This document shows positions 5,035 to 25,069 of a DNA stretch of 64,000 nucleotides, one piece after another. Origin of the DNA: Chloroflexota bacterium (GTDB taxonomy: Bacteria; Chloroflexota; UBA11872); the NCBI GenBank assembly GCA_965262745.1, contig OZ253558.1, forward strand, positions 1,623,735 through 1,687,734, read 5' to 3'. How positions within the stretch are numbered: the first letter of the stretch is position 1; every line of letters begins with the position of its first letter. The position numbers and the translations under genes were made by a program. The notes beneath the pieces were generated by a model that saw only the letters and a program-made list of their open reading frames with translations, was not told where the DNA came from and ran no database searches.

Positions 5035-5773
5035 GTGCTGGTGGTGGTCGCCCTCGCACTCGTTCAGAATCTCTTGGCCAGCGCCACCACGACCGACTTC
5101 CGGCTGGCCGACCAATACGAATCCGAACGCGCAGCCGCCTTGCTCGAAGAGAGGTTGCGCGGCGCATCTGGGCTACGCCCTTTCCACTTTTTCAGCAAGG
5201 TTGCTGAAACACATGAAGACCTTGGGCGCCGGCTTCAATGACGAAGAGCGCGAGAGTTTCATGGCGGTCTGGCGCTATTCCGGTCACCTGATGGGCATCC
5301 CCGAGACGATCCTGTTTCGTGATGAAGAGGAAGCCCTGAAGCTCTATGAGATTGGCATCATGTGCGAGCCGGATGCTCCGATCGAATCGGTGGTGATGGC
5401 CCACTCCCTGGTAAACGCAGCTCCGTTGATTGCCGGCATGACGAGTCCGGAAGACCGTCAGAAATTAGCGAAATACGTGTACCGTATTTCCCGCGGACTT
5501 CTCGGCAGAGGCACTTGCCAACAACTCACTTGCCAACAACTAATGTATCCCGCGCATTCATCCTTTGGAGCGGTCGCGTGGTTTAGATTCCAGCAGCGTT
5601 ACGGTCACATTACTGGCAAGCTGCTTCCATTGCTCAGAATTCTTCCGGTAAATACAGGGGATAGTAACTACACTAGGTTTACATCTTTGCTCGAGACTTC
5701 AGTGTACGACGAGGAAGGAATCCACTACAAACTGCCCGACCACGTCTACGCGGAGGAGTCCTCCAAGTGGTGA
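5035..5773 (+). pseudogene. MpaB-family (DUF2236) oxygenase-like gene remnant, frameshifted
   Basis: Two overlapping frames (5035-5241 and about 5213-5773) together resemble an MpaB-type oxygenase; GC is markedly lower than the surroundings; it lies directly downstream of the IS. Confidence 0.3.
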
Positions 5774-5964
5774 GAATGTAGTCCCGTCTGCTGGGACCGA
5801 TATCGCCTTCGACATCAAGCAGCCTCAGGGAGCCCCGATAGCCAGACTCCCAGAGGACGTGCAGAACAGCATCCGAGAGTGGATCGCATCGGCCGAAGGT
5901 CGCGCAGTTCGGCAAGCGCGCGCATAACTACCATCCGGTGCGTCGCCCTAGCGGTCGCAGGGCA

Positions 5965-6351
5965 TTAGAAGTCCCCGAAGGGCCTCACCTTTTCCTCAAG
6001 CCACGCACGCAGCTGAGCGAACCGGAACGAGTTGGTGGCGAATAACTGCATGAAGTACCCGTACGCTTCAGGGTTATCGCACTCAATGAAACGGCCGTTT
6101 AGGCGCAGGAAGGCGTCGGTGGCGAAAAAGGCAGCCCGCTTGTTGCCGTCCACGAAGGGGTGATTCATGGCCAGGCTCTCCAAGAGCGCGGCGGCTTCAT
6201 CGAGGAGACCGTCGTAGTAGCCGAGCTGCGGGCGCATGATGCCGGACTCGAGCGCGCCGGCGTCGCGCAAACCGGCGCCACCGCCGAACTCGGCGACCTG
6301 GGCATCGTGGATGGCTACGACTTCCTCAAGCGTGGGGAAGTCGTGCGTCAT
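5965..6351 (-). CDS. doc: Doc (death-on-curing) Fic-family toxin
   Basis: 128-aa ORF with the Fic/Doc motif HPFVDGNKR. Confidence 0.85.
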   Translation of the reverse strand: MTHDFPTLEEVVAIHDAQVAEFGGGAGLRDAGALESGIMRPQLGYYDGLLDEAAALLESLAMNHPFVDGNKRAAFFATDAFLRLNGRFIECDNPEAYGYFMQLFATNSFRFAQLRAWLEEKVRPFGDF

Positions 6352-6578
6352 TGCGCCAACAGTTCAGCCAGAAGCCGGTTTTTTTCGACGCTCGCCCGAT
6401 AGTGCGCCATAACCTCGGGGCGAACCTTTTGCCGCGCCCGGCTTTCGATGTAGTGGCCCATGGCGTCTTCCAGCACCGCCTGAAAATGGCGGCCGTCGTT
6501 GCGGGCGATCTGGCGCATCGCCGTCAACAGCTCTGGGTCGGCCTGGCTGGAAAACTTCACACGCGGCGTAGCCATCAC
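6348..6578 (-). CDS. Ribbon-helix-helix (Phd-like) antitoxin partner of Doc
   Basis: 76-aa ORF directly upstream of doc with a 4-bp ATGA start/stop overlap; beta-strand-plus-helices pattern typical of CopG/RHH antitoxins. Confidence 0.6.
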   Translation of the reverse strand: MMATPRVKFSSQADPELLTAMRQIARNDGRHFQAVLEDAMGHYIESRARQKVRPEVMAHYRASVEKNRLLAELLAQ

Positions 6579-6767
6579 TCAACCTCCTTGCCCACTGCCT
6601 TGACCATGCATCAATGCAGAGATGGGGTCAAGAAGCAGCTTGACAGAGATGGCCAAAGCGCGAACAAGCCGCCATCGCCAGCATGATGGGCAGTTCGCGA
6701 ACCGCCCCAACACGAGGGCACTGACCCCGCGGCACGAAAGCGTATCGCGGGCGACGCTCGCTTAGAC

Positions 6768-7178
6768 TTGCGCATGACCGCCTCACTTGCCGTAGCCCTG
6801 GTCAGCGGCATCGCCGCCGGCCTCGTTGTCGGCATCGGCGTGGCTTGGATGGCCCCGCGGTTGCGTCGTGCCCACAAGACTTCCGCGGATGCCTCAGGCT
6901 CCAGCGAGGCGCGGCTCGCGCGAGATTTCACCGTGCTGGCGGAGCTGCTGGCGGAACGTCTGGCCAAGATCTGGCTGGCCGACACCCCCGGGGCACCTGC
7001 GGCGGACGGCGATGCGCTCTATCACCACGTGCTGGAATCCACCACGACGATCGTGCGCCAAGCCGGGGCGTCGCCGAAGGCGGCAGCCGCCGTGGGCGCG
7101 CTCACCGCCAAGCGGGTGCGGCCGGGCCCGATTCGCGGCCGGCGCGACGACGGGTCCCCGGTGGGACCCCCCAGTTAG
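6768..7178 (+). CDS. Hypothetical membrane-anchored protein
   Basis: 136-aa ORF with an N-terminal hydrophobic helix; no recognisable domain. Confidence 0.3.
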   Translation: MRMTASLAVALVSGIAAGLVVGIGVAWMAPRLRRAHKTSADASGSSEARLARDFTVLAELLAERLAKIWLADTPGAPAADGDALYHHVLESTTTIVRQAGASPKAAAAVGALTAKRVRPGPIRGRRDDGSPVGPPS

Positions 7179-7187
7179 GAGCGCCGC

Positions 7188-8114
7188 CTAAGCCGGAACA
7201 GCCGTCCGAGCGAACTCCGGCAGATAGGACTTGAGCAGAGAAAAGGCGGCGTCGATCTGCGCGTCGTCATGGGATGTCTTGGGCGGTGCGACCCAGCGCT
7301 CCATGACCCCCACGCGGCTCAGCAGACCCTTGGCGGTGGCGTGGCCGAAGCCGGGCTGTGCCAGGAACAGCTCCAGGAATTCATTGTTGCGGTTTTGGGC
7401 GGCCGCCGCGGCCTCCAGGTCGCCCGTCCGCCACGCCTCGTAAATGTCCAGATTCAGCTGCGGCGCCATGTTCGGCGTCATGCCCGTGGTGGCCGACGCG
7501 CCGGAGATGAGAGCGTGAAGGAACGTCACGTCGCCGCCGACGACGACCCGAAATTCAGGACCGCCGCGCGTGGCGGCCAGATAGCTCATCACGTTCGCCA
7601 CGGAGCCTGAGCTGTCCTTGGTGCCTTGTACACCGACGTCGCGCAGCCGCAGAAGCGTCGCCGGCTCGGTGGCGACCTTGGTCATGCGTGGGATGTTGTA
7701 GAGCAGCACAGGGACGGGCGACGCGCGAACCACGCCCTCGAAATGCAGGACAAGCTCGTCCTGGGTCATCGGAAAGTAGAACGGCGGGTTCACGAGCGTG
7801 CCGTCCGCGCCCAGCTCCCCGGCCGCGCGGAGCTGCTCGTGGGTGCGGGTCACGTTGGGCTGCCCACACGCCACAATCACCGGCACGACACCGTCGACCT
7901 CATTTACGGCTGCCCGAATGACGACCTCGCGATCCACATCGTCGATGGAGGCGAACTCGCCCGTCGTTCCAAGCACCACGATCCCGTGGCAGCCAGCATC
8001 GACGACGCGCCGAATGAGACGCCGCAGCGCGGCTTCGTCCACGGAGAAGTCGGCGTGGAGCGGCGTGAGCAGCGCGGGTATCACGCCGTGGATGCGGGAC
8101 TGAAACGTCGTCAT
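7188..8114 (-). CDS. Dihydrodipicolinate synthase family protein (DapA/NAL-type aldolase)
   Basis: GTTGEFASI motif and class I aldolase fold; start taken at MTTFQ rather than the longer track ORF. Confidence 0.8.
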   Translation of the reverse strand: MTTFQSRIHGVIPALLTPLHADFSVDEAALRRLIRRVVDAGCHGIVVLGTTGEFASIDDVDREVVIRAAVNEVDGVVPVIVACGQPNVTRTHEQLRAAGELGADGTLVNPPFYFPMTQDELVLHFEGVVRASPVPVLLYNIPRMTKVATEPATLLRLRDVGVQGTKDSSGSVANVMSYLAATRGGPEFRVVVGGDVTFLHALISGASATTGMTPNMAPQLNLDIYEAWRTGDLEAAAAAQNRNNEFLELFLAQPGFGHATAKGLLSRVGVMERWVAPPKTSHDDAQIDAAFSLLKSYLPEFARTAVPA

Positions 8115-8236
8115 GAGGAGTCCAAGCGCTGATGCAGGCCGGCAGCGACCGAGTATAGGCGCCGCTCCACGCGCACGATGCCCCAGAATGGCATCATCGC
8201 CGCGGCGAGACGGCAGGCAGCGAGGAGTTGCGTCCA

Positions 8237-9181
8237 ATGGAATACGTGAACATGGGTCGTTCGGGGCTCAAGGTGTCCCGGATCGCGCTCGGATGCGGGT
8301 TCCGCGGGATGACGGACCAAGACGCGATGGAGCGTGTGATCACGCATGCCATCGACCGAGGCATCAACTTCATCGACTGCGCGAACACCTACGTCGGCGG
8401 AGTCGGGGAGCAGGTGCTGGGGCGCGTATTGGCGCGGAATCGCGACGATCTGGTCATCACCACCAAAGTGACGTCGATCGTCGCGGAGGGACCAAACGAC
8501 ATCGGCAGCTCGCGCTACCACATCATGCGTGAGATCGACCGCAGCCTGCGCCGGCTCCAGACCGACCATGTGGACATCTACATCGTCCACTGGCGCGATC
8601 ACACGACGCCACTGGAAGAGACAGTTCGAGCGATGACCGACGTTGTGGCCAGCGGCAAGGCCCGGTATTGGGGTGTCTCCAGCTATCAGGCGTGGGAGGC
8701 GTGCCAGGCGCTCTGGATTGCCGACCGGGCGGTTGCGCCCGGATTCATCACCACGCAGAACCAGTACAGCCTGCTGCACCGCGACCTTGAGCAGGAGATT
8801 TTCCCCTTCTGCGCCGAATTCGGCATCGGCGTGATGGCGTTCTCACCGCTTGCCGTCGGCGTGCTCAGCGGTGACCTGCAGCAGGGCCAGCCACCCCCTG
8901 CCGGCACGCTGTGGGCGCGGCAACCACCAGGGGATCTTCAAACGATCATCACCGACCGAGCGCAGCGGGTCATCGACGCCCTGCGCGAGATCGGCGCTGC
9001 CCGCGAGCGACATCCCACATCCGTTGCGATCCAGTGGGTGCTCTCCCATCCCGAAGTCAGCACCGCCATCGCCGGCCCGGATACCACCGAGCAACTCGAC
9101 CCGTACGTGGACGCCGTTGGCTGGGAATTGACCGCCGACGAGCGTTCGCGGCTCGACGAGGCCTCGGGCCCCGCGGACTAG
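8237..9181 (+). CDS. Aldo/keto reductase
   Basis: AKR family sequence (MEYVNMGRSGLKVS.. start, IDCANTY, HWRD motifs). Confidence 0.85.
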   Translation: MEYVNMGRSGLKVSRIALGCGFRGMTDQDAMERVITHAIDRGINFIDCANTYVGGVGEQVLGRVLARNRDDLVITTKVTSIVAEGPNDIGSSRYHIMREIDRSLRRLQTDHVDIYIVHWRDHTTPLEETVRAMTDVVASGKARYWGVSSYQAWEACQALWIADRAVAPGFITTQNQYSLLHRDLEQEIFPFCAEFGIGVMAFSPLAVGVLSGDLQQGQPPPAGTLWARQPPGDLQTIITDRAQRVIDALREIGAARERHPTSVAIQWVLSHPEVSTAIAGPDTTEQLDPYVDAVGWELTADERSRLDEASGPAD

Positions 9182-9951
9182 ATATTCGAGCGGGACTGCC
9201 CGCCGTCCACGTTGATGCAGGCGCCGGTGACGAGGCTGGCCTGTTCCGAGGCCAGGAATGTCGCCACGGCGGCCACCTCCTCGGGACGGCCAAACCGGCC
9301 CATGGGCATATCGCGCTCGACGAACGCCGCGATGCCCTGGGGATCGCGGCGCTGTCGCCGCTCCCAGCCGCCGCCGGGAAACAGAATCGAGCCCGGCGCC
9401 ACGGCGTTGACCGTGATGCCAAAGGGCGCCAGCTCGTGCGCCATCGACGTTGCCAGACTATTCATCGCCGACTTGGCGGCGTTGTAGGCCGGTGGGCCGC
9501 CGCCCTCGCGGCCGTAGATGGACGTGATATGCACGATGCGGCCCCAGCCGCCGGCTTTCATGAGCGGCACCGCCGCACGGCTGGCCCGCACGGCCGCCCA
9601 TAGATTCAGGTCGAGCGTTGTGGACCAATGCTCGTCGGTGCCCGTCATGAAGCCGGTGTCGCCAGCCGAGCCGCCGACGTTGTTCACCAGCACGTGAATG
9701 CCCCCGAGCTCGGCCACCGTGCGCGCGACCGCCTGTGCCGGCGCGGCGACGTCGCGAATGTCGAGCTGGAGCGAGAACGCGCGAACACCGAGCGCCGAAA
9801 TCTCGTCGGCGGTGCGTTGCAGGTCCTCCACGCCTCGAGCCACAATCGCCACGTCACAACCCTCGGCAGCAAGCCCGAGGGCAATCGCCCGGCCGATACC
9901 ACGGCTCCCACCGGTCACGAGCGCGATTCGATCACGCAGGCCAACGTCCAT
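9178..9951 (-). CDS. SDR-family oxidoreductase (FabG-like)
   Basis: TGGSRGIGRAIA Rossmann motif, NNVG and the YxxxK catalytic pattern. Confidence 0.85.
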   Translation of the reverse strand: MDVGLRDRIALVTGGSRGIGRAIALGLAAEGCDVAIVARGVEDLQRTADEISALGVRAFSLQLDIRDVAAPAQAVARTVAELGGIHVLVNNVGGSAGDTGFMTGTDEHWSTTLDLNLWAAVRASRAAVPLMKAGGWGRIVHITSIYGREGGGPPAYNAAKSAMNSLATSMAHELAPFGITVNAVAPGSILFPGGGWERRQRRDPQGIAAFVERDMPMGRFGRPEEVAAVATFLASEQASLVTGACINVDGGQSRSNI

Positions 9952-17183: not shown

Positions 17184-19643
17184 GTGGCCGACGAACGCCT
17201 GTTGCCCATCGAGCTCGCCGAGGAGATGGAAGCCTCCTACATCGACTACGCCATGAGCACCATCATGGCGCGCGCCATCCCGGACGCGCGCGATGGACTC
17301 AAGCCGGTGCAGCGGCGGTTGCTGTATTCGATGGACGAGTTGGGCTCCGCGCCGGGCGCGGGCTATCGCAAGTCGGCGCGCGTGGTGGGTGACACGATGG
17401 GCAAGTACCACCCGCACGGCGATAGCGCGCTTTACGACGCGCTCGTGCGCATGGCGCAGCCGTTTTCCCTGCGCTACCCGCTCGTGGACGGCCAAGGCAA
17501 CTTCGGCTCGGTCGACGGCGATCCGGCCGCCGCCATGCGGTACACCGAGACCCGGCTGACGGCGGTGTCGGCCGAGATGCTCGACGAAATCGATCGCGAC
17601 ACCGTTAATTTCGTCGAGAATTTCGACGGGACCTCCGAGATGCCCGAGGTCCTGCCCTCTGTTGTCCCCAATCTGCTTCTCAACGGCGCCACGGGCATCG
17701 CGGTCGGGATGGCGACGAGCCTCCCGCCGCACAACCTGCGCGAAGTCGGACGCGCGATCCAGCACCTGCTGGACACCCCGGACGCGAGCCAGGACGACCT
17801 CATGAAGTTCGTCAAGGGCCCGGACTTCCCAACCGCGGCGGTGATCATCGGGGCCGAGGACATCCAAGAGACCTATCGGAAGGGCCGCGGCCGGGTGCTG
17901 GTGCGCGCCCGGGTCACGATCGAGGAGGTCCGGGGCGAGCGCATGGCGCTGGTCGTCACCGAGCTGCCCTACATGATCAACAAGGCCACGTTGATCGAGC
18001 GCATCGCCGACCTCGTGCGCCACCGCACCGTCGAGGGCATTTCGGACCTTCGCGACGAATCCGACCGCCATGGCATGCGGGCCGTGATTGAGTTGAAGCG
18101 CGACGCCCGGCCGTCGGCGGTGCTCAACCAGCTCTACAAGCACACGGCGCTGCAATCCACGTTCAGCATCAACATGCTGGCCCTGGTCGACGGGCGGCCG
18201 GAGCAGCTCACGCTCAAGCGCATGATCGAGATCTTCATCCAGCACCGGCAGGAGGTGATCCGCCGACGGACGACCTTCGATCTGAAGAAGGCGCGTGTCC
18301 GGGAGCACCTGCTCGAGGGCTATGTCATCGCGCTCGACAACATCGACGCCGTCATCAAGTGCATTCGCGCCGCCGCCGACACGGAAGCCGCGCGTCGCGA
18401 GTTGATGCAGCGATTCGGCCTTTCCGAAACCCAGGCCAACGCGATTCTCGACATGCAGCTGCGCCGGCTGGTGCGGCTCGAACGGCAGCGCATCCTCGAC
18501 GAGCTCGATGCCGTGCGGGCGGAGATTGCCGACCTCATGGACATCCTGGCCGACCCGAACCGGGTGCGCGAGATCATCCGCAGCGAGACCCGCGCCATCG
18601 TGGATCGCTTCGGCGACGAGCGCCGCACCGAGATCCTGACCGGCGCGAGTGGCGAGTTCTCGGATGCCGACCTCGTGGCCGATGAGGATTGCCTGGTCAC
18701 GCTCTCATCGAATGGTTATGTCAAGCGCGTGCAGGCAACCGCCTACCGCCGGCAGGGTCGCGGCGGCCGCGGGATCATCGGCTTCCGCAGCAAGGCCGGC
18801 GGCATCGTCGAACACTTCCTCATCACCAACTCGCACGACCACCTGCTCTTCTTCACGAGCCGCGGCAAGGTCTACCGACTGCGGACCTACGAGATCCCCC
18901 AGCACGGCCGCGACGCGCAGGGCATCAACGTGATCAACCTGTTGCCCATCGAGCAAGGCGAAACGGCCACCGCCATCCTCGCCATCCCGAACTTCGAGGC
19001 GGGCGACTACCTCGTGTTCGGGACGCGCCGAGGCGAGGTTAAGCGCAGCGCGCTGACGCAGTTCGTCACCGCCCGCAGCAACGGCCTGCTGGCCATGGAC
19101 GTGGAGCCTGACGACGAGCTGGCCTGGGTGCGCCTGGCCACCGACGAGGACAGCGCGATGTTCTTCACCCGGGAGGGCATGGCCATTCGCTTTCTTCTCG
19201 ATAACGTGCGCGCCAGCGGCCGGACGAGCGGCGGCGTGCGCGCCATCAGCTTGACCAACGACGACGAGGTCGTGGCCATGGACCTCGTGCATGAGGAGGC
19301 CTACGTACTTCTGGTCACCAGCAATGGGTTCGGCAAGAAGATGCCGGTGTCGGACTTCCGGTCTCAGGGCCGCGGCGGGCAAGGCGTGCGCGCCATCAAT
19401 CTCAACGAGAAGACCGGCCCGGTGGCCGATGCGCGCACGCTTCTCAGCCCCGACGAGGAGATCGTGTTGGTCTCCTCCGACGGCCAGGTGATCCGCTGCG
19501 GCCTCAAGGACGTGCGCCCGTTGGGACGCTACGCCGCCGGCGTGATCGTGATGCGCATGAAAAACAGCGTAGGCCTGCTGCGCGTGGCCCGGCTGGCCGA
19601 CGGCCGCGACGGGGAACGGGATACCCAGCCCGAGGCATCCTGA
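17184..19643 (+). CDS. gyrA: DNA gyrase subunit A-type type IIA topoisomerase
   Basis: 819 aa; catalytic region AMRYTE and a GyrA-box-like [13 protein letters not shown]; GTG start overlaps the moaC stop (TGAGTG). Confidence 0.8.
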
Positions 19644-19753
19644 CCGACCCGCCAACGGCACCCGGGAAATATCTCAGCGGAGAGGGAACGTTTCACCGCT
19701 GTCGCGCGTAATATCAGTTAGCGGACAGATTTCATCGGCGCCTGGAGTTCACG

Positions 19754-21496
19754 ATGCGGCGACTTCGAGCAGGATTCGTCATCCTCATCGTGCTGGCGCT
19801 CACGGCATGCGGCGAGGCGGATAGTGGAGCCGAATCGCTAGAGCTCAACGACAGTTCGATGGCCGAGCCGGCGATGGCAATGGCTACCAGCGCGCCCAGG
19901 GCCGTGCGCGAGGTGGTCGAGGTCGAGGTCATCCGCGAGGTGCCGGTCGAGGTCATCAAAGAGGTGATGGTCGAGGTCGAGAAGGTTGTCGAGAAGTCCG
20001 TCTCGACAGAGTCGGCTGCCGCTGCCGCGCCGCAGTCGCTCGACGCCGGTGTGGTCGAGCGCCAGATCATCCGCACCGGCACGCTGAGCGTTGTCGTCAC
20101 CGATCTCGCTGCCGCGGTGACGCAGGTTCAGGACATAGTCGATGGCATCCCCGGGGCCTTTGTCGCCGCGTCCAACATCCAGCAGGACGACCCGCGGCGC
20201 GTGAGCACGATCACCGTGCGCGTCCCCGTCGCGACGTTCGACGCCACGCTCGCCGCCCTGCGCAACGTCGGCGCCGAGGTGATCGACGAAGACATCCGCA
20301 GCCAGGACGTCACGGCGCAGTACACCGACCTGACCGCCCGCCTGCGCAACGCCACCGCCGCGGAGCAGCAGCTGCTGGAGATTCTCACCCGCGCGGTAAG
20401 CGTGCAGGACACCATCGACGTGCAGCGCGAGCTCACCCAGGTGCGCGAGCGCATCGAGGTGCTCCAAGGCCAGCTCAATTTGCTGACCAACCAAACCTCG
20501 CTCGCCACGATCACGCTGCGCCTGCACCCAGCATCGGATCTGATCGTGACGCGCGAGACCCCAAGCCATTTCCAAATGCATGACCAAACCCACCTCGCCG
20601 TGACGGTGCGCAACGACGGCACCGTGGACCTGATGCAGGTGGAAATCGCTGACCGGCTGGACCCGGGCATGATCTTCTTGGCCGCTGGCGAGGGCGCCGT
20701 CTACGACGCAGCCGCCCACACGGTGCGGTGGACGATCGACCGTCTGAGGCCCGGCGAAGCGCGCTTCCTCGGCGCCGAGGTCCGCCTGGAGAGCGATGAG
20801 CCCGAGATGCAGGCACGCGCCGAGGTCTCGACATCGAGCCCGGAGGGTGACGCCGCCAACAACCGCGCCACGGCGACCCTGACGTTCCATGTGGACCTGG
20901 CCATCACCAAGGATGGCCCGCCCGCCGTGCCGATCGGTCGGGACGCCGCGTACGGCCTGGAGTTCCGCAACACCGGCAACACCGACGCCCGCAACGTGCG
21001 CCTGGAAGAACGCTTGTCCGACGGCATGCAGTTCGTGCGCGCGGATGGCGGCGGCCGATTTGACGCCGACCGCGGCATGATCGTATGGGAGTTTCCGCGG
21101 CTTGCGCCCGGGTCTGTCGACCGCGTGACCTACGTGGCGCGCGTGGAGGCCAGCGCGGGCCGTCTCCAAACCGACACCACGATCACATCCGACGAGCCGG
21201 ACCGCGCCGGCGTGGACAACACGACAACCACATTCCTCACCGTGTTGCCGGAGGACGTAGCCGACCGCGAGGTCTGGAGCCCCGGATCAACGGCTCGCGA
21301 GAGCGTCGATCGGCTGGGGCGCTTCGCCCAGTGGGCCGCCGACGCCGGGCTCACCATCGGCATCATCGGCGTGCCCGTCCTGGTCGTGCTGGCGATCCCC
21401 GTCCTGGCCGTCCGCGCGGTCCGGCGGCGCCGCCGCGCAGCCAATCGGGGAAGCGGCGTCAACGACGCCCCCTCCGGTAATACGCCGTCGGCGTGA
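19754..21496 (+). CDS. DUF4349 plus DUF11-repeat lipoprotein, tandem paralog 1
   Basis: Lipobox LALTACGE, DUF4349-like region (IIRTGTLSVVV..TARLRN), DUF11-type repeats, C-terminal TM anchor; the C-terminal tail is fused to a gyrA 3' remnant. Confidence 0.7.
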   Translation: MRRLRAGFVILIVLALTACGEADSGAESLELNDSSMAEPAMAMATSAPRAVREVVEVEVIREVPVEVIKEVMVEVEKVVEKSVSTESAAAAAPQSLDAGVVERQIIRTGTLSVVVTDLAAAVTQVQDIVDGIPGAFVAASNIQQDDPRRVSTITVRVPVATFDATLAALRNVGAEVIDEDIRSQDVTAQYTDLTARLRNATAAEQQLLEILTRAVSVQDTIDVQRELTQVRERIEVLQGQLNLLTNQTSLATITLRLHPASDLIVTRETPSHFQMHDQTHLAVTVRNDGTVDLMQVEIADRLDPGMIFLAAGEGAVYDAAAHTVRWTIDRLRPGEARFLGAEVRLESDEPEMQARAEVSTSSPEGDAANNRATATLTFHVDLAITKDGPPAVPIGRDAAYGLEFRNTGNTDARNVRLEERLSDGMQFVRADGGGRFDADRGMIVWEFPRLAPGSVDRVTYVARVEASAGRLQTDTTITSDEPDRAGVDNTTTTFLTVLPEDVADREVWSPGSTARESVDRLGRFAQWAADAGLTIGIIGVPVLVVLAIPVLAVRAVRRRRRAANRGSGVNDAPSGNTPSA

Positions 21497-21705
21497 TCGT
21501 GATGCGTCTGACGGAGAAGGTGAACCAGCCGCGCCTGGCCCGGCGGGCCGTCGGCCGCGACGGAGAACGGCAGAGCCAGACCCCAGCGTCCTGACCGATC
21601 TGCCGCCGACCGCGGCAAAGTTCCTGATCGGACAGGGAACGTTTCATCTCCGCCGTGCGTATTATCAAGTACCAGACCATGCTCGAAAGCCATTGGGAGT
21701 TCACC

Positions 21706-23481
21706 ATGCGGCGGAATGGCCACCGGGAAATCACTTTGCGGCGCTGTCGAGCAGGATTTGTCGCCCTCGCCATCGGCGCGCTGACGCTTGGGGCGTGCGG
21801 TGAGGCTGAAGTCGTCGAAAAGATGGTGACGGTGACCATCACTGAGGTCAAGGAAGTCATCAAGGAAGTTCCGGTCGAGACGGTGGTCACCAGGGAGGTC
21901 ATCAAGGAAGTGGCGGTTGAGACGGTGGTCATGCAGGAGGTGGCGGTCGAGAAGGAGGTCATCCGAGAGGTGGCGGTTGAGAAGCTGGTGACGGCGCCCT
22001 CATCCGCGTCGTCTGGCGCACTTCCCGAGGGCGCACGGCCGGCACTCACGGCCCTCGTGGCCGAGCGCCACATCATCCGCACCGGCACGCTCAGCATGGT
22101 GGTCAACGATCTCCCGGTCGCCGTGACGCAGATTCGAGAGATCGTGGCCAGCGTTCCGGGTGCGTTCATCGCCTCGTCCAACGTCCAGCGTGACGATCCC
22201 GATCGGACGAGCACCATGACGGTGCGGATCCCCTCCCAGGCGTTCGATCCCGCGCTCACCGCGCTGCGCAGCATTGGCGCCGAGGTGATCGACGAAGACA
22301 TCCGCAGCCAGGACGTTACCGAGCAGTACACCGATTTGGCCGCCCGTTTGCGCAACGCCAAGGTGACCGAGGAGCGACTGCTGGACATCCTCGGCCGCGC
22401 GAAAGACGTCGAGGAGACGCTCAACGTCGAGGCCGAAGTCGCCAAGGTTCGCGAACGCATCGAGTTGCTCCAAGGCCAATTGAATGTGCTGACAAACCAG
22501 ACGTCGCTGGCAACGCTCGTGATGCAACTGCATACGGTGGCCGACCTGATCCTCGAGCGCGAAGCCGTGCTTAACTTCCAGATGCATGACCGCACCCAGC
22601 TTGGTCTGACGGTGTACAACCAAGGCACGGTGGAGCTTGCTGAGGTCAAGGTCGTGGACCGGCTGGATCCGGGCATGATCTTCGTGAACGCCGACGAAGG
22701 CTTCACCTTCGACGACACTTCCAACACGGTCTCGTGGACCATCGACCGGCTGGGTGCGGGCCACTCGCTCACCCTCCGCACGGAAGTGAGGCTGGAGAGC
22801 GACGGGCGCGACATGGAAGCGCGCGCCGAGGTCTCGACGGCCAGCCCGGAGCGTGACCCCACCAACAATAGCGCCGTCACCAAGCTGAGATTCCACGTGG
22901 ATCTGGCCGTCGAAAAGGACGGCGGGACGGTGGTGACCAGCGGTGAGGACATCTCGTACAGCGTTGATTTCAGGAATTCCGGGAACACCGACGCCCGCAA
23001 CGTGCGCCTGGAAGAACGCCTGCCCGAGGGCATGGCGTTAGTGCGCGCGAGTGGCGCCGGCCGCTATGACGCCGGCCGAAACGCGATCGTATGGGAGTTT
23101 CCGCGGCTCGCACCGGGGTTTGGCGACCGCGTGAGCTACGTGGCCCGCGTGGAGACGGACTCGGGCCATCCCCGAGTCGACACGACGATCACGTCGGACG
23201 AGCCTGAACGCGTCGGCGTGGACAACTCGACGACCACTTTCCTAACCGTGTTGCCGGAACCGGAGCCGACGCCGGAGCCGACACCGGAGCCGGTGCCCGA
23301 GCCCGAACTCTGGGACCCCGGTTTAGCGGCTCGCGAAAGCGCCGATCGGCTAGGGAAGTTCGGGCAGTGGGTCTCGGATACCGTGGTGACCGTTGGCATC
23401 ATCGGCGGACCCATCGTGGCCGTGCTGGGGGTCATCGCCGGGGCGGCCTACGCGGTCAGGCGGCGCTGGCGCAGGGCCTAG
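21706..23481 (+). CDS. DUF4349 plus DUF11-repeat lipoprotein, tandem paralog 2
   Basis: Same architecture as paralog 1 (lipobox LTLGACGE); ATG at 21706 preceded by GGGAG. Confidence 0.7.
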   Translation: MRRNGHREITLRRCRAGFVALAIGALTLGACGEAEVVEKMVTVTITEVKEVIKEVPVETVVTREVIKEVAVETVVMQEVAVEKEVIREVAVEKLVTAPSSASSGALPEGARPALTALVAERHIIRTGTLSMVVNDLPVAVTQIREIVASVPGAFIASSNVQRDDPDRTSTMTVRIPSQAFDPALTALRSIGAEVIDEDIRSQDVTEQYTDLAARLRNAKVTEERLLDILGRAKDVEETLNVEAEVAKVRERIELLQGQLNVLTNQTSLATLVMQLHTVADLILEREAVLNFQMHDRTQLGLTVYNQGTVELAEVKVVDRLDPGMIFVNADEGFTFDDTSNTVSWTIDRLGAGHSLTLRTEVRLESDGRDMEARAEVSTASPERDPTNNSAVTKLRFHVDLAVEKDGGTVVTSGEDISYSVDFRNSGNTDARNVRLEERLPEGMALVRASGAGRYDAGRNAIVWEFPRLAPGFGDRVSYVARVETDSGHPRVDTTITSDEPERVGVDNSTTTFLTVLPEPEPTPEPTPEPVPEPELWDPGLAARESADRLGKFGQWVSDTVVTVGIIGGPIVAVLGVIAGAAYAVRRRWRRA

Positions 23482-24269
23482 CTCGAGGCGCTGGTGTAGC
23501 GGCTGAGGCCGAGGCTCCAGAATCGCGTGGCCGCCAGCACTGCGGTGACGGCGATCACGGGAGCTGCCCACACGAGCCACGACGGGTCGCGCCCGGTCAC
23601 CACCTGCGCCGGGATCGTCGTGACAAACGCCACCGGGAACACGAAGGTCAAGAGTTGACGCAGCCAGAACGGGTAGACCTCGATCGGGTAGCGTCCGGTT
23701 TGGAAGAAGAGATTGAAGATCATCGTCACGTTGGCCACGCGCACGAACCAGAACACAAGCGTGGTCAGCGCCAGCCAGATGGCGTAGACGATCGCCACGC
23801 CGCAAATCAGCAATCCCACGAACAGCAGCACGCCCCAGCCCGAGACGTGGGTTTCGAGGCCAAGGAGCGCCACGGTGAGGACGATGGCGCCGAGCACGAT
23901 GTCCGATACGTGCCAGACGGCAAAGCGCCGGGCGCTGGCCAGGAACAGGGCCGGCACCGGTTTCATGAGCACGTAGTCGAACGTGCCGTCGCGGACTTCC
24001 TCGACGACCCGGTTAAGGCTTGGCGACATGAACATCGCCACAAAGCCGTTCACAAAAACGAATATCCCCAGCAGCGACATCGTCTGTCCCAGCGTCCAGC
24101 CGCCGAGCGTTTCCGTGTGCGCAAAGATCACGGCCACGCTGCCGATGGCGGTGCCCAGGTTGAGCACGCTGCGGATCACGTTGCCAAGCAAGTCGCCCCG
24201 GTAGGCGAATTCTTCCTGGAGCGCCGAGCGAAAGAAGGCGCCGGCGATCCGGGCGAGCCGCCCGATCAC
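23478..24269 (-). CDS. ABC-2 family transporter permease
   Basis: Six predicted TM helices of the ABC-2 type; GTG start at 24269 overlaps the upstream stop (GTGA). Confidence 0.65.
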   Translation of the reverse strand: MIGRLARIAGAFFRSALQEEFAYRGDLLGNVIRSVLNLGTAIGSVAVIFAHTETLGGWTLGQTMSLLGIFVFVNGFVAMFMSPSLNRVVEEVRDGTFDYVLMKPVPALFLASARRFAVWHVSDIVLGAIVLTVALLGLETHVSGWGVLLFVGLLICGVAIVYAIWLALTTLVFWFVRVANVTMIFNLFFQTGRYPIEVYPFWLRQLLTFVFPVAFVTTIPAQVVTGRDPSWLVWAAPVIAVTAVLAATRFWSLGLSRYTSASS

Positions 24270-25069
24270 GCGCCCACCGCCGCATAGCGCTTGACGCCGG
24301 CCCGCCAGAGCAGCACGAATGCCGTCGCCGCCGCCACGGTCCAGCCGGCCTGGATGGCCAGTCCCGCGGCGAGCTCCACACCCTGGACCCGGCCGAGCGC
24401 CACCTCGATCGGGAAACCGACCGTATAGCGCATTGGCAGCACCATGGCGGCTTGCTGCAGCAGGCCGGGAAGCACGGCAACGGGCGCGACCTGCCCGCCG
24501 AGCAAGAGGGTGAGACTTATCCAGATATCCCAGAAGGACATGGAGCGCGTGGTCCAAAACGCCAGCATGGCGAAGCACGAGCCGACAAGGAATGACATCA
24601 CCGCCGCCATGACCATGGACGGCGCGAAGAGCGCGATCCCCACCCAGTCCGGATCGAAGGCGGGGCGGAGAATCAGCGCCAAGCCGACCCAGATCGGGAT
24701 CAGAAACATCAGATTCACGGCCTTGTAGGCCAGGTTGAGCGCCCCCGCGCGCCAGAACGGATGCAGCGGCCTGAGCATGTGCGCGGAGAGCCTGCCGGTC
24801 TGGATCGTCGGCGCCATCGTGTAGACCTCGATCGCCAAGGTGAGGTGCGAGACGGCCATGAAGACGAGGTAGTAGAGGACGAAGTCGTCGCGGCCATAGC
24901 CGGCAATGGTTCCGTCGCCGACCACCGTGGACCAGATGACCAGGTAGATGATGGGATTCACCACCTGCCAGAGGCCGTAGAGGAACATCTCGATGCGGTA
25001 CTGGAAAAGGTCCGCCAGCTCCGCCCTGAGCAGCGCCGCAAAGCCCGCCAGCGTGCGCGAGCGCATCAC
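24266..25069 (-). CDS. ABC-2 family transporter permease
   Basis: Polytopic membrane protein; start overlaps the ATPase stop by 4 bp. Confidence 0.7.
   Translation of the reverse strand: MMRSRTLAGFAALLRAELADLFQYRIEMFLYGLWQVVNPIIYLVIWSTVVGDGTIAGYGRDDFVLYYLVFMAVSHLTLAIEVYTMAPTIQTGRLSAHMLRPLHPFWRAGALNLAYKAVNLMFLIPIWVGLALILRPAFDPDWVGIALFAPSMVMAAVMSFLVGSCFAMLAFWTTRSMSFWDIWISLTLLLGGQVAPVAVLPGLLQQAAMVLPMRYTVGFPIEVALGRVQGVELAAGLAIQAGWTVAAATAFVLLWRAGVKRYAAVGA

Follow-up and report, generated by a model that had tools for sequence, protein, structure and literature searches.

The 64,000-nucleotide (nt) stretch of a Chloroflexota bacterium analysed here (contig OZ253558.1), referred to below as the window, contains a head-to-tail segmental duplication directly downstream of gyrA. 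It is made of two colinear units with a dead fragment of gyrA, called the fossil below, at their joint. Each unit carries a gene for a lipoprotein with one DUF4349 domain and two DUF11 (CLIPPER) domains, and these two paralogues are called P1 and P2. In both copies the open reading frame (ORF) is intact, and a ribosome-binding site and the motif GGGAAC-N17-CGTA are retained. An initial annotation, made from the sequence of the window, had proposed a tandem duplication running from the 3' end of gyrA to the end of the lipoprotein gene, and two colinear units with a truncated piece of gyrA at the joint are what we found. In our judgement it is quite likely that the duplication is old, that the proteins have diverged at an accelerated rate, that the fossil has been overwritten from gyrA, that deletions have made the copy number polymorphic and that each copy has its own promoter of the extracytoplasmic function (ECF) sigma type.

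The two units were compared by alignment. Local alignment of 19480-19760 with 21430-21735 gave a score of 153, whereas shuffled sequences gave 20.0 +/- 2.7 with a maximum of 29, so the similarity of the upstream regions is well beyond chance. With blastn, the gyrA 3' end and the spacer behind it (19530-19761 versus 21481-21713) are 71.7% identical (E 2e-40), with 79% identity over the core (19530-19647 versus 21481-21598). The homology that begins in gyrA runs on through the whole of spacer 2 to the ATG of P2 (21706), which aligns with the ATG of P1 and has its own GGGAG upstream. The coding repeat is colinear as well (19912-21436 versus 21912-23472, 71.9% identity). The offset between the units is 1951 nt across the fossil and approximately 2006 nt across the coding sequence (CDS). 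The two-copy structure is also present in L080, a relative that is 96.3% identical to the window at the nucleotide level, and in L001 (relatives are named by locus number). Since these are independent assemblies, the array is not an assembly artefact.

P1 and P2 share one domain architecture, as had been read from their translations. Pfam matches to DUF4349 (PF14257) scored 137.4 bits in P1 and 141.2 bits in P2 (cut-off 27.7), and those to DUF11/CLIPPER (PF01345) scored 101 and 99.6 bits (cut-off 24.6), the latter in two stretches per protein. Translation of P1 gives the order lipobox signal peptide (LTAC), E/V-rich repeats, DUF4349, two DUF11/CLIPPER domains, transmembrane (TM) helix, RRRRR and a tail of 17 amino acids (aa). 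P2 runs from a lipobox signal peptide (LGAC) through E/V-rich repeats, DUF4349 and two DUF11 domains to a hydrophobic helix and an Arg run. Both signal peptides are of the twin-arginine lipobox type (MRRLRAGF...LTAC in P1 and ...RRCRAGF...LGAC in P2), and a C-terminal hydrophobic stretch followed by RRRRR (P1) or RRRWRR (P2) gives both proteins the predicted pattern of a tail-anchored lipoprotein. Orthologues of P2 were found in L001 (87%), L007 (81%) and L080, and the GyrA proteins of L001-L009 are 90-95% identical to that of the window. An exact look-up of the P1 sequence in the contig index found no record.

The fragment at the joint was examined in several ways. In the gyrA frame, 21490-21594 translates as GVIVMRLTEKVNQPRLARRAVGRDGERQSQTPAS*, exactly as the initial annotation had given it. 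A tblastn search of the 64 kb with GyrA detected the fossil at 21457-21591 (45 aa, 55.6%, E 8e-7) and no further gyrA-like copy besides it. The left edge had been placed at about 21476; it lies further left, at about 21460-21472, and ungapped homology can be followed back to about 21463, where CGC CCC CTC corresponds to R-P-L of gyrA. P1 has lost its original stop and now ends inside the gyrA fragment, in the +1 frame. Its TGA (21494-21496) comes from shifting the reading of GGC GTG ATC in gyrA by one base, to G GCG TGA. The last 48 nt of P1 find their best match within the locus in the end of gyrA (score 29 in the window and 37 in L001; background 14 +/- 2.6), and the last 11 or so codons of P1 are therefore derived from the fossil. 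The earlier claim that the stop and last residues of P1 lie inside the remnant thus holds. An in-frame GyrA relic in the P1 tail (CGLKDVRP to SGVNDAP) was considered and rejected, since the ungapped alignment of nucleotides shows P1 to be read in the +1 frame relative to the fossil. For the junction zone at 21437-21459, alignment scores and manual comparison revealed no significant similarity to either gyrA or the 3' end of the neighbouring ABC permease gene. Its origin from the permease 3' end was dropped because the manual comparison gave no convincing match. The features of the locus are listed in Table 1.

Table 1. Features of the duplicated gyrA-downstream locus (window coordinates; asterisk, stop codon)
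Feature	Position	Strand	Remarks
gyrA	17184..19643	+	819 aa; Pfam DNA_topoisoIV 3.5e-159 and six DNA_gyraseA_C blades; left-flank gene, intact, source of the fossil
Copied gyrA 3' segment	19509..19643	+	Left limit uncertain, ~19498-19522; from alignments; tblastn match begins 45 codons before the stop
Spacer 1 (gyrA stop to P1 ATG)	19644..19753	+	GGGAAC-N17-CGTA 19684-19710; GGAG 19744-19747
P1 (paralogue 1)	19754..21496	+	580 aa; Pfam, translation; orthologues at 74-94% identity
Junction zone	21437..21459	+	23 nt between the last P2-homologous base (21436) and the first convincing gyrA-homologous base
gyrA 3'-end fossil	21460..21594	+	GyrA-noncoding; supplies the last ~11 codons and TGA of P1 in the +1 frame
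Spacer 2 (copy of spacer 1)	21595..21705	+	First ~16 nt in the apparently young gyrA-like tract; GGGAAC-N17-CGTA 21635-21661; GGGAG 21695-21699
P2 (paralogue 2)	21706..23481	+	591 aa; Pfam; architecture as P1; ends RRRWRRA*, without the tail
ABC-2 type permease	23478..24578	-	Convergent right flank, end of the duplicated array; Pfam ABC2_membrane_6 on the L079/L080 orthologue
Possible P1/P2 gene-conversion tract	20939..21180, partner ~22945-23186	+	Low synonymous difference; hint only

To place the array among its relatives, GTDB species representatives were scanned. This returned 78 loci, and the close matches were all metagenome-assembled genomes (MAGs) of Chloroflexota. They are treated here as clade A, with GyrA at least 90% identical to that of the window, and clade B, with GyrA at about 74%. 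Both two-copy and single-copy states, for which the initial annotation had proposed comparing relatives, were found. In clade A, L001 and L007 have two copies, and L002-L006, L008 and L009 have a single P1-type gene directly before the permease gene. L080 carries the two copies together with a fossil almost identical to that of the window, and the array is common to at least three species-level lineages. In clade B, 12 genomes have gyrA followed by two copies (L010, L012, L013, L017-L022, L025, L026 and L029, at about 5500-9800 in each). A search for joint fossils in these 12 two-copy genomes found none (z at most 3.2 in 11, and a gapped match with z 5.1 in L025).

The single-copy relative L079 is 97.1% identical to the window up to 21436 and 98.3% identical from 23460 on. 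Its gene is P1-like as far as gcggtccggcggcgc and P2-like after that, ending in ...RRRRRRA* with a stop that overlaps the permease stop. The crossover lies within a short homology, gcggtc.ggcggcgc, in the run of Arg codons, and joins, at 6600-6700 of L079, what is 21420-21436 in the window to about 23460-23481. L079 therefore represents a clean loss of one unit through a short-homology crossover. It follows that the single-copy relatives are at least partly secondary losses. Because L079 is nearly identical to the window and yet has one unit fewer, copy number is polymorphic at the strain level.

Other joints and gene ends vary among the relatives. In L007, the joint (7420-7662) has a fossil of 21 nt from the permease 3' end (TAGCTCGAGGCGCCGGAGTAGAGG; score 33 versus 14.5 +/- 2.4) behind P1. 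L007 has an orthologous P2, but local alignment against shuffled sequences detected no significant gyrA fossil between its copies; only a colinear match of 14 nt (ACGTCGAGCTGCTG) was seen, and as the local score of 23-28 lies inside the range of the shuffles (maximum 27-31), it was rejected. The same spacer also holds the tandem repeat tttctttgccaa twice. In L002 (7690-7760), L003, L005 and L006, the single-copy gene has a P1-like tail, and then CGCCGGAGAGC-TAG occurs just before the permease stop. This sequence resembles the end of a second gene (RR..*) and may have been left behind by the deletion of a second copy. A gyrA origin of these tails was rejected, as the scores of 14-18 equal the background (14-15 +/- 2.6). 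The tails of L002 and L005 contain the palindrome cgccggatccggcg. The stops of P2 (+) and the permease gene (-) overlap in a palindromic CTAG at 23478-23481, and the same overlap is found at the tail-less single-copy genes of L004, L008, L009 and L079. Compared to the window, P1 of L080 carries an insertion of 27 nt in its E/V-rich repeats, and a 1-nt deletion disrupts its frame (window 19913 and 19984); L079 has a 1-nt insertion at window position 17359 that splits gyrA. These indels may be real, or they may be errors of low-coverage long-read assembly.

The age of the duplication was assessed with a neighbor-joining (NJ) tree of the proteins (518 columns, 100 bootstraps) and with nonsynonymous (dN) and synonymous (dS) divergence calculated by the Nei-Gojobori method. 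In the tree, the P2 proteins of the window, L001 and L007 form a clade (support 100) that is sister to all nine clade-A P1-type genes (support 100), and therefore the array is older than the clade-A radiation. The first and second copies of clade B branch elsewhere, which argues that the clade-B pair is a separate event, in which this locus would have gained a second gene independently, by duplication or acquisition. dS between P1 and P2 is 0.53-0.80, and the dN values between P2 and the individual P1 genes are uniform (0.29-0.36). For comparison, dS is 0.33-0.59 in the crown, 0.20-0.23 between the window and L001 and 0.45-0.49 between the window and L007. The ratio dN/dS is 0.39-0.54 for P1-P2, 0.24-0.32 for orthologues and 0.11 for gyrA.

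P1 and P2 are 56-59% identical in amino acids and their CDS are 71.6% identical in nucleotides, with 64.8% at third positions. The low amino acid identity is due both to the age of the split and to accelerated change of the proteins. The initial annotation had pointed out that the coding regions, at about 55% amino acid identity, are far more diverged than the noncoding remnant. Its estimate for the proteins agrees with ours, but the CDS at 71.6% compares with 76-79% for the fossil when both are counted in nucleotides. Most of the contrast disappears, since amino acids had been compared with nucleotides and the protein divergence is inflated by a dN/dS of about 0.5.

The fossil itself behaves as neutrally evolving DNA in sequence comparisons, in which neither coding nor other constraint is detectable. 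The fossils of the window and L001 are 69-71% identical to each other, which compares with 67% for the unconstrained 5' part of spacer 1 and 97% for the promoter-proximal part of spacer 2 in these two genomes. Substitutions in the fossil are spread evenly over codon positions (7:8:7 and 6:9:4). No Rfam family matched anywhere in 19300-23700, and no sigma-70 promoters or terminators on the + strand were found in that interval.

Despite its neutral evolution, the fossil is apparently young. It is 76-77% identical to the window's own gyrA, and each fossil (window and L001) is closer to gyrA tails, at 76-83%, than to the other fossil, at 69-71%. Discordant distances of this kind are typical of ectopic gene conversion. 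Over 114 fossil sites, there are 18 private changes in the window and 15 in L001, and the same base occurs at only 2 doubly hit sites, which is the chance level. If the fossil were as old as the P1/P2 split, which was taken to be at least as old as the window-L007 split, approximately 23 shared changes would be expected; at most 2 were seen (P ~3e-8). The gyrA-like tract (~21460-21610) is 76-82% identical to its source, whereas the rest of the copied spacer is 56-63% identical (Fisher p 0.004-0.0001). The similarity drops beyond the fossil plus 16 nt, as at the boundary of a conversion tract. The apparent age of the fossil is about 2.5 times younger than that of the genes. The fossil also has a C-terminal extension, GRDGER..Q..AS*, which among the gyrA genes is limited to the window/L001/L009 lineage, and the fossil is 81-83% identical to the gyrA tails of that lineage versus 73-74% to gyrA of the L004 type. 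The fossil was probably re-copied from gyrA, either by gene conversion or by a second rearrangement, a possibility that the initial annotation did not consider. Later overwriting from the live gyrA would be the reason why a neutral fossil is still 76-82% identical to it.

Other parts of the units gave further, weaker hints of exchange. In the tract 20939-21180, the proportion of synonymous differences (pS) between P1 and P2 is 0.16-0.26 in the window and L001, compared to 0.38-0.49 for the L007 pair and 0.4-0.6 elsewhere, and nucleotide identity is 79-80% versus 72-75% for other P1 genes. This suggests a gene-conversion tract between P1 and P2 in this region and its partner. In L001, the last 48 nt of spacer 1 (5955-6003) are 80% identical to spacer 2 of the same genome (7905-7955), compared to 65-69% in the window and L009, and conversion from spacer 2 to spacer 1 may have occurred there. 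Spacer 2 and the first P2 codons (21611-21745, versus 7860-7990 in L001) are 97-100% identical between the two genomes, where neutral DNA is only about 70% identical. This degree of identity indicates either strong constraint on a putative leader or regulatory region or recent exchange.

Each copy of the gene is also preceded by a promoter-like motif. GGGAACG-N15-17-GCGTA occurs at exactly two sites in the 64 kb (19684-19710 and 21635-21661), where 0.01 would be expected. The GGGAAC-N17-CGTA motif is kept in all ten clade-A spacers, and GGAACG-N16-CGT precedes both copies in 12 of 12 clade-B genomes (24 upstream regions), whose upstream DNA is otherwise unalignable. Across 22 genomes, a motif of this type is found upstream of every DUF4349-CLIPPER copy. 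Promoters recognised by ECF sigma factors have GGAAC at -35 and CGT at -10 with a spacer of 16-17 nt, and by this resemblance GGGAACG-N16/17-CGTA is a candidate ECF-sigma-type promoter. Since the motif is kept in both units, the duplication would have carried a complete expression unit. In other proteins (P0088 and P0091-P0093), DUF4349 is also fused to anti-sigma zf-HC2 domains.

We propose the following history for the locus. The duplicated unit of about 1.95-2.0 kb would have comprised the last 135-145 nt or so of gyrA, the spacer with its promoter-like element and the DUF4349-CLIPPER lipoprotein gene. A single duplication by illegitimate recombination would have taken place at or before the radiation of the window's clade, followed by accelerated protein divergence, chiefly on the P2 branch. 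Near the window/L001 split, the live gyrA would have overwritten the fossil by gene conversion or by re-duplication and deletion. Deletions through short homologies between the units would keep the copy number polymorphic, and each copy would be transcribed separately from an ECF-sigma-type promoter.

Several observations weigh against parts of this history. The tree is an NJ tree on protein distances, in which the long P2 branch could be drawn to the base. The dS of P2 is lowest to P1 of the window and L001 (0.53-0.55), compared to 0.72-0.76 for L003, L004 and L006, which could reflect a younger origin in that lineage, or conversion or codon usage. The joint in L007, with a permease 3' fossil after P1 and no significant gyrA piece, differs from that in the window; if the duplication arose only once, small deletions must have followed, or recombination with a single-copy relative. 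There are few direct marks of conversion: of the donor-specific gyrA changes, L001 shares 1 of 6 with its own fossil and the window 0 of 4. The clock argument presumes that the fossils are orthologous and evolve at comparable rates. Lastly, a tblastn search of the window with RpoE and SigW queries found no ECF sigma gene, and the ECF promoter assignment is one of motif resemblance.

Some of these points would fit a young duplication that arose shortly before the window/L001 split and involved no conversion. The fossil would simply have decayed, P2 would have evolved very fast and L007 would have received its P2 laterally. The apparent age of the fossil does fit the window/L001 split, the lowest dS of P2 is to P1 of these two genomes, L009, the sister of the window and L001, is single-copy, and the joint in L007 is of another type. 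This explanation is nevertheless unlikely. The P1-P2 dS of 0.53-0.62 is 2.5-3 times the window-L001 dS of 0.20-0.23, the dN from P2 is equal to all P1 genes and the copied spacer beyond the fossil, at 56-63%, is far more diverged than the fossil. In addition, the dS of 0.49 between P2 of the window and L007 matches the 0.47 of gyrA, and therefore P2 was present at the window-L007 split or in an equally distant donor.

A donor is central to another possible explanation, in which the gyrA end, the spacer and the lipoprotein gene were added to the locus from a related organism and the divergence of P2 is that of the donor. P2 does form a long separate branch, the structure of the locus varies among close relatives, and clade B has a second, separately derived pair at the same place. 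We consider this improbable, however, since the GRDGER..Q..AS* extension of the fossil is confined to window/L001/L009 gyrA (81-83% versus 73-74% to the L004 type), a P2-like gene is the sole copy in no sampled lineage and the raised dN/dS suits relaxation after duplication better than ordinary orthologous divergence. It is more improbable still, to the point of being hardly credible, that the gyrA-like stretch is functional and selected, whether as a P1 terminator, as a small ORF or as an RNA that serves P2 as leader or regulator. Both the window and L001 preserve the reading frame of the fragment and the position of its stop, and the fragment is located directly upstream of a highly conserved spacer. 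On the other hand, its identity between the two genomes (69-71%) is at the level of unconstrained spacer, its substitutions are even over codon positions, it has no start codon, no Rfam match and no terminator-like hairpin on the + strand, and it is lost in L007. An old duplication with a fossil refreshed from gyrA remains the best explanation.

Tandem segmental duplications in which a flanking gene is left truncated at the new joint are well known in bacteria, including RecA-independent cases at short homologies in Salmonella and E. coli. The array in the window is like these in its head-to-tail units, its one novel joint with a gene fragment and the loss of a unit between repeats, as in L079. 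Laboratory duplications are usually large, identical and unstable, whereas this one is small (~2 kb), old (dS >0.5) and fixed in several species, with its genes intact. Concerted evolution by ectopic gene conversion is also known between duplicated bacterial genes, such as tufA and tufB. As in that case, a paralogous tract here is more similar than its age predicts and has a boundary at which similarity drops. In contrast to tufA/tufB, the acceptor would be a dead fragment of an essential gene, and conversion is deduced from about 130 nt in two lineages. The locus is thus a known kind of event, an ordinary tandem duplication that could be documented in unusual detail, and reveals no new element or mechanism. 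The probable refreshment of the fossil from the live gyrA is its only mildly surprising element.

The proteins resemble described families as well. A DUF4349 (PF14257) lipoprotein of Methylobacterium was examined as a candidate for a Tat (twin-arginine translocation)-dependent tail-anchored protein (PMC10924467). P1 and P2 have in common with it a twin-arginine lipobox signal peptide, DUF4349, a C-terminal TM helix, an Arg run and a short tail. They differ in having two CLIPPER domains between DUF4349 and the anchor, and their Tat dependence is predicted from sequence. CLIPPER is the recent new name of DUF11 (PF01345), a CnaA-like isopeptide domain that occurs in surface proteins (bioRxiv 10.1101/2025.04.25.650565). 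P1 and P2 are like such proteins in their DUF11 matches above the Pfam cut-off and their predicted extracytoplasmic location, and unlike the long fibrillar CLIPPER stalks in having only two domains, assigned by Pfam match. The likeness to ECF-sigma promoters lies in the GGGAACG-N16/17-CGTA upstream of every copy and is known here as a sequence motif.

A broader reading is that the locus downstream of gyrA is a hot spot. An ECF-regulated, tail-anchored CLIPPER lipoprotein gene would have been duplicated there at least twice independently, in clades A and B, diverging fast and being deleted repeatedly, with its fossil refreshed by ectopic conversion and its turnover driven by selection at a host or phage interface. 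We offer this tentatively, as a possibility with the odds against it. Many of the MAGs presumably come from sponge metagenomes, judging by their isolate names.

With its relatives, the locus is a clean natural example in which a bacterial tandem duplication can be followed from birth to loss: the joint fossil, a C-terminus taken out of frame from gyrA, accelerated divergence of one copy, probable refreshment and the loss of a unit in a strain 97-98% identical to the window. In addition, a conserved motif of the ECF type is tied to DUF4349-CLIPPER lipoproteins that are so far uncharacterised, and this may serve as a handle for finding their regulator.

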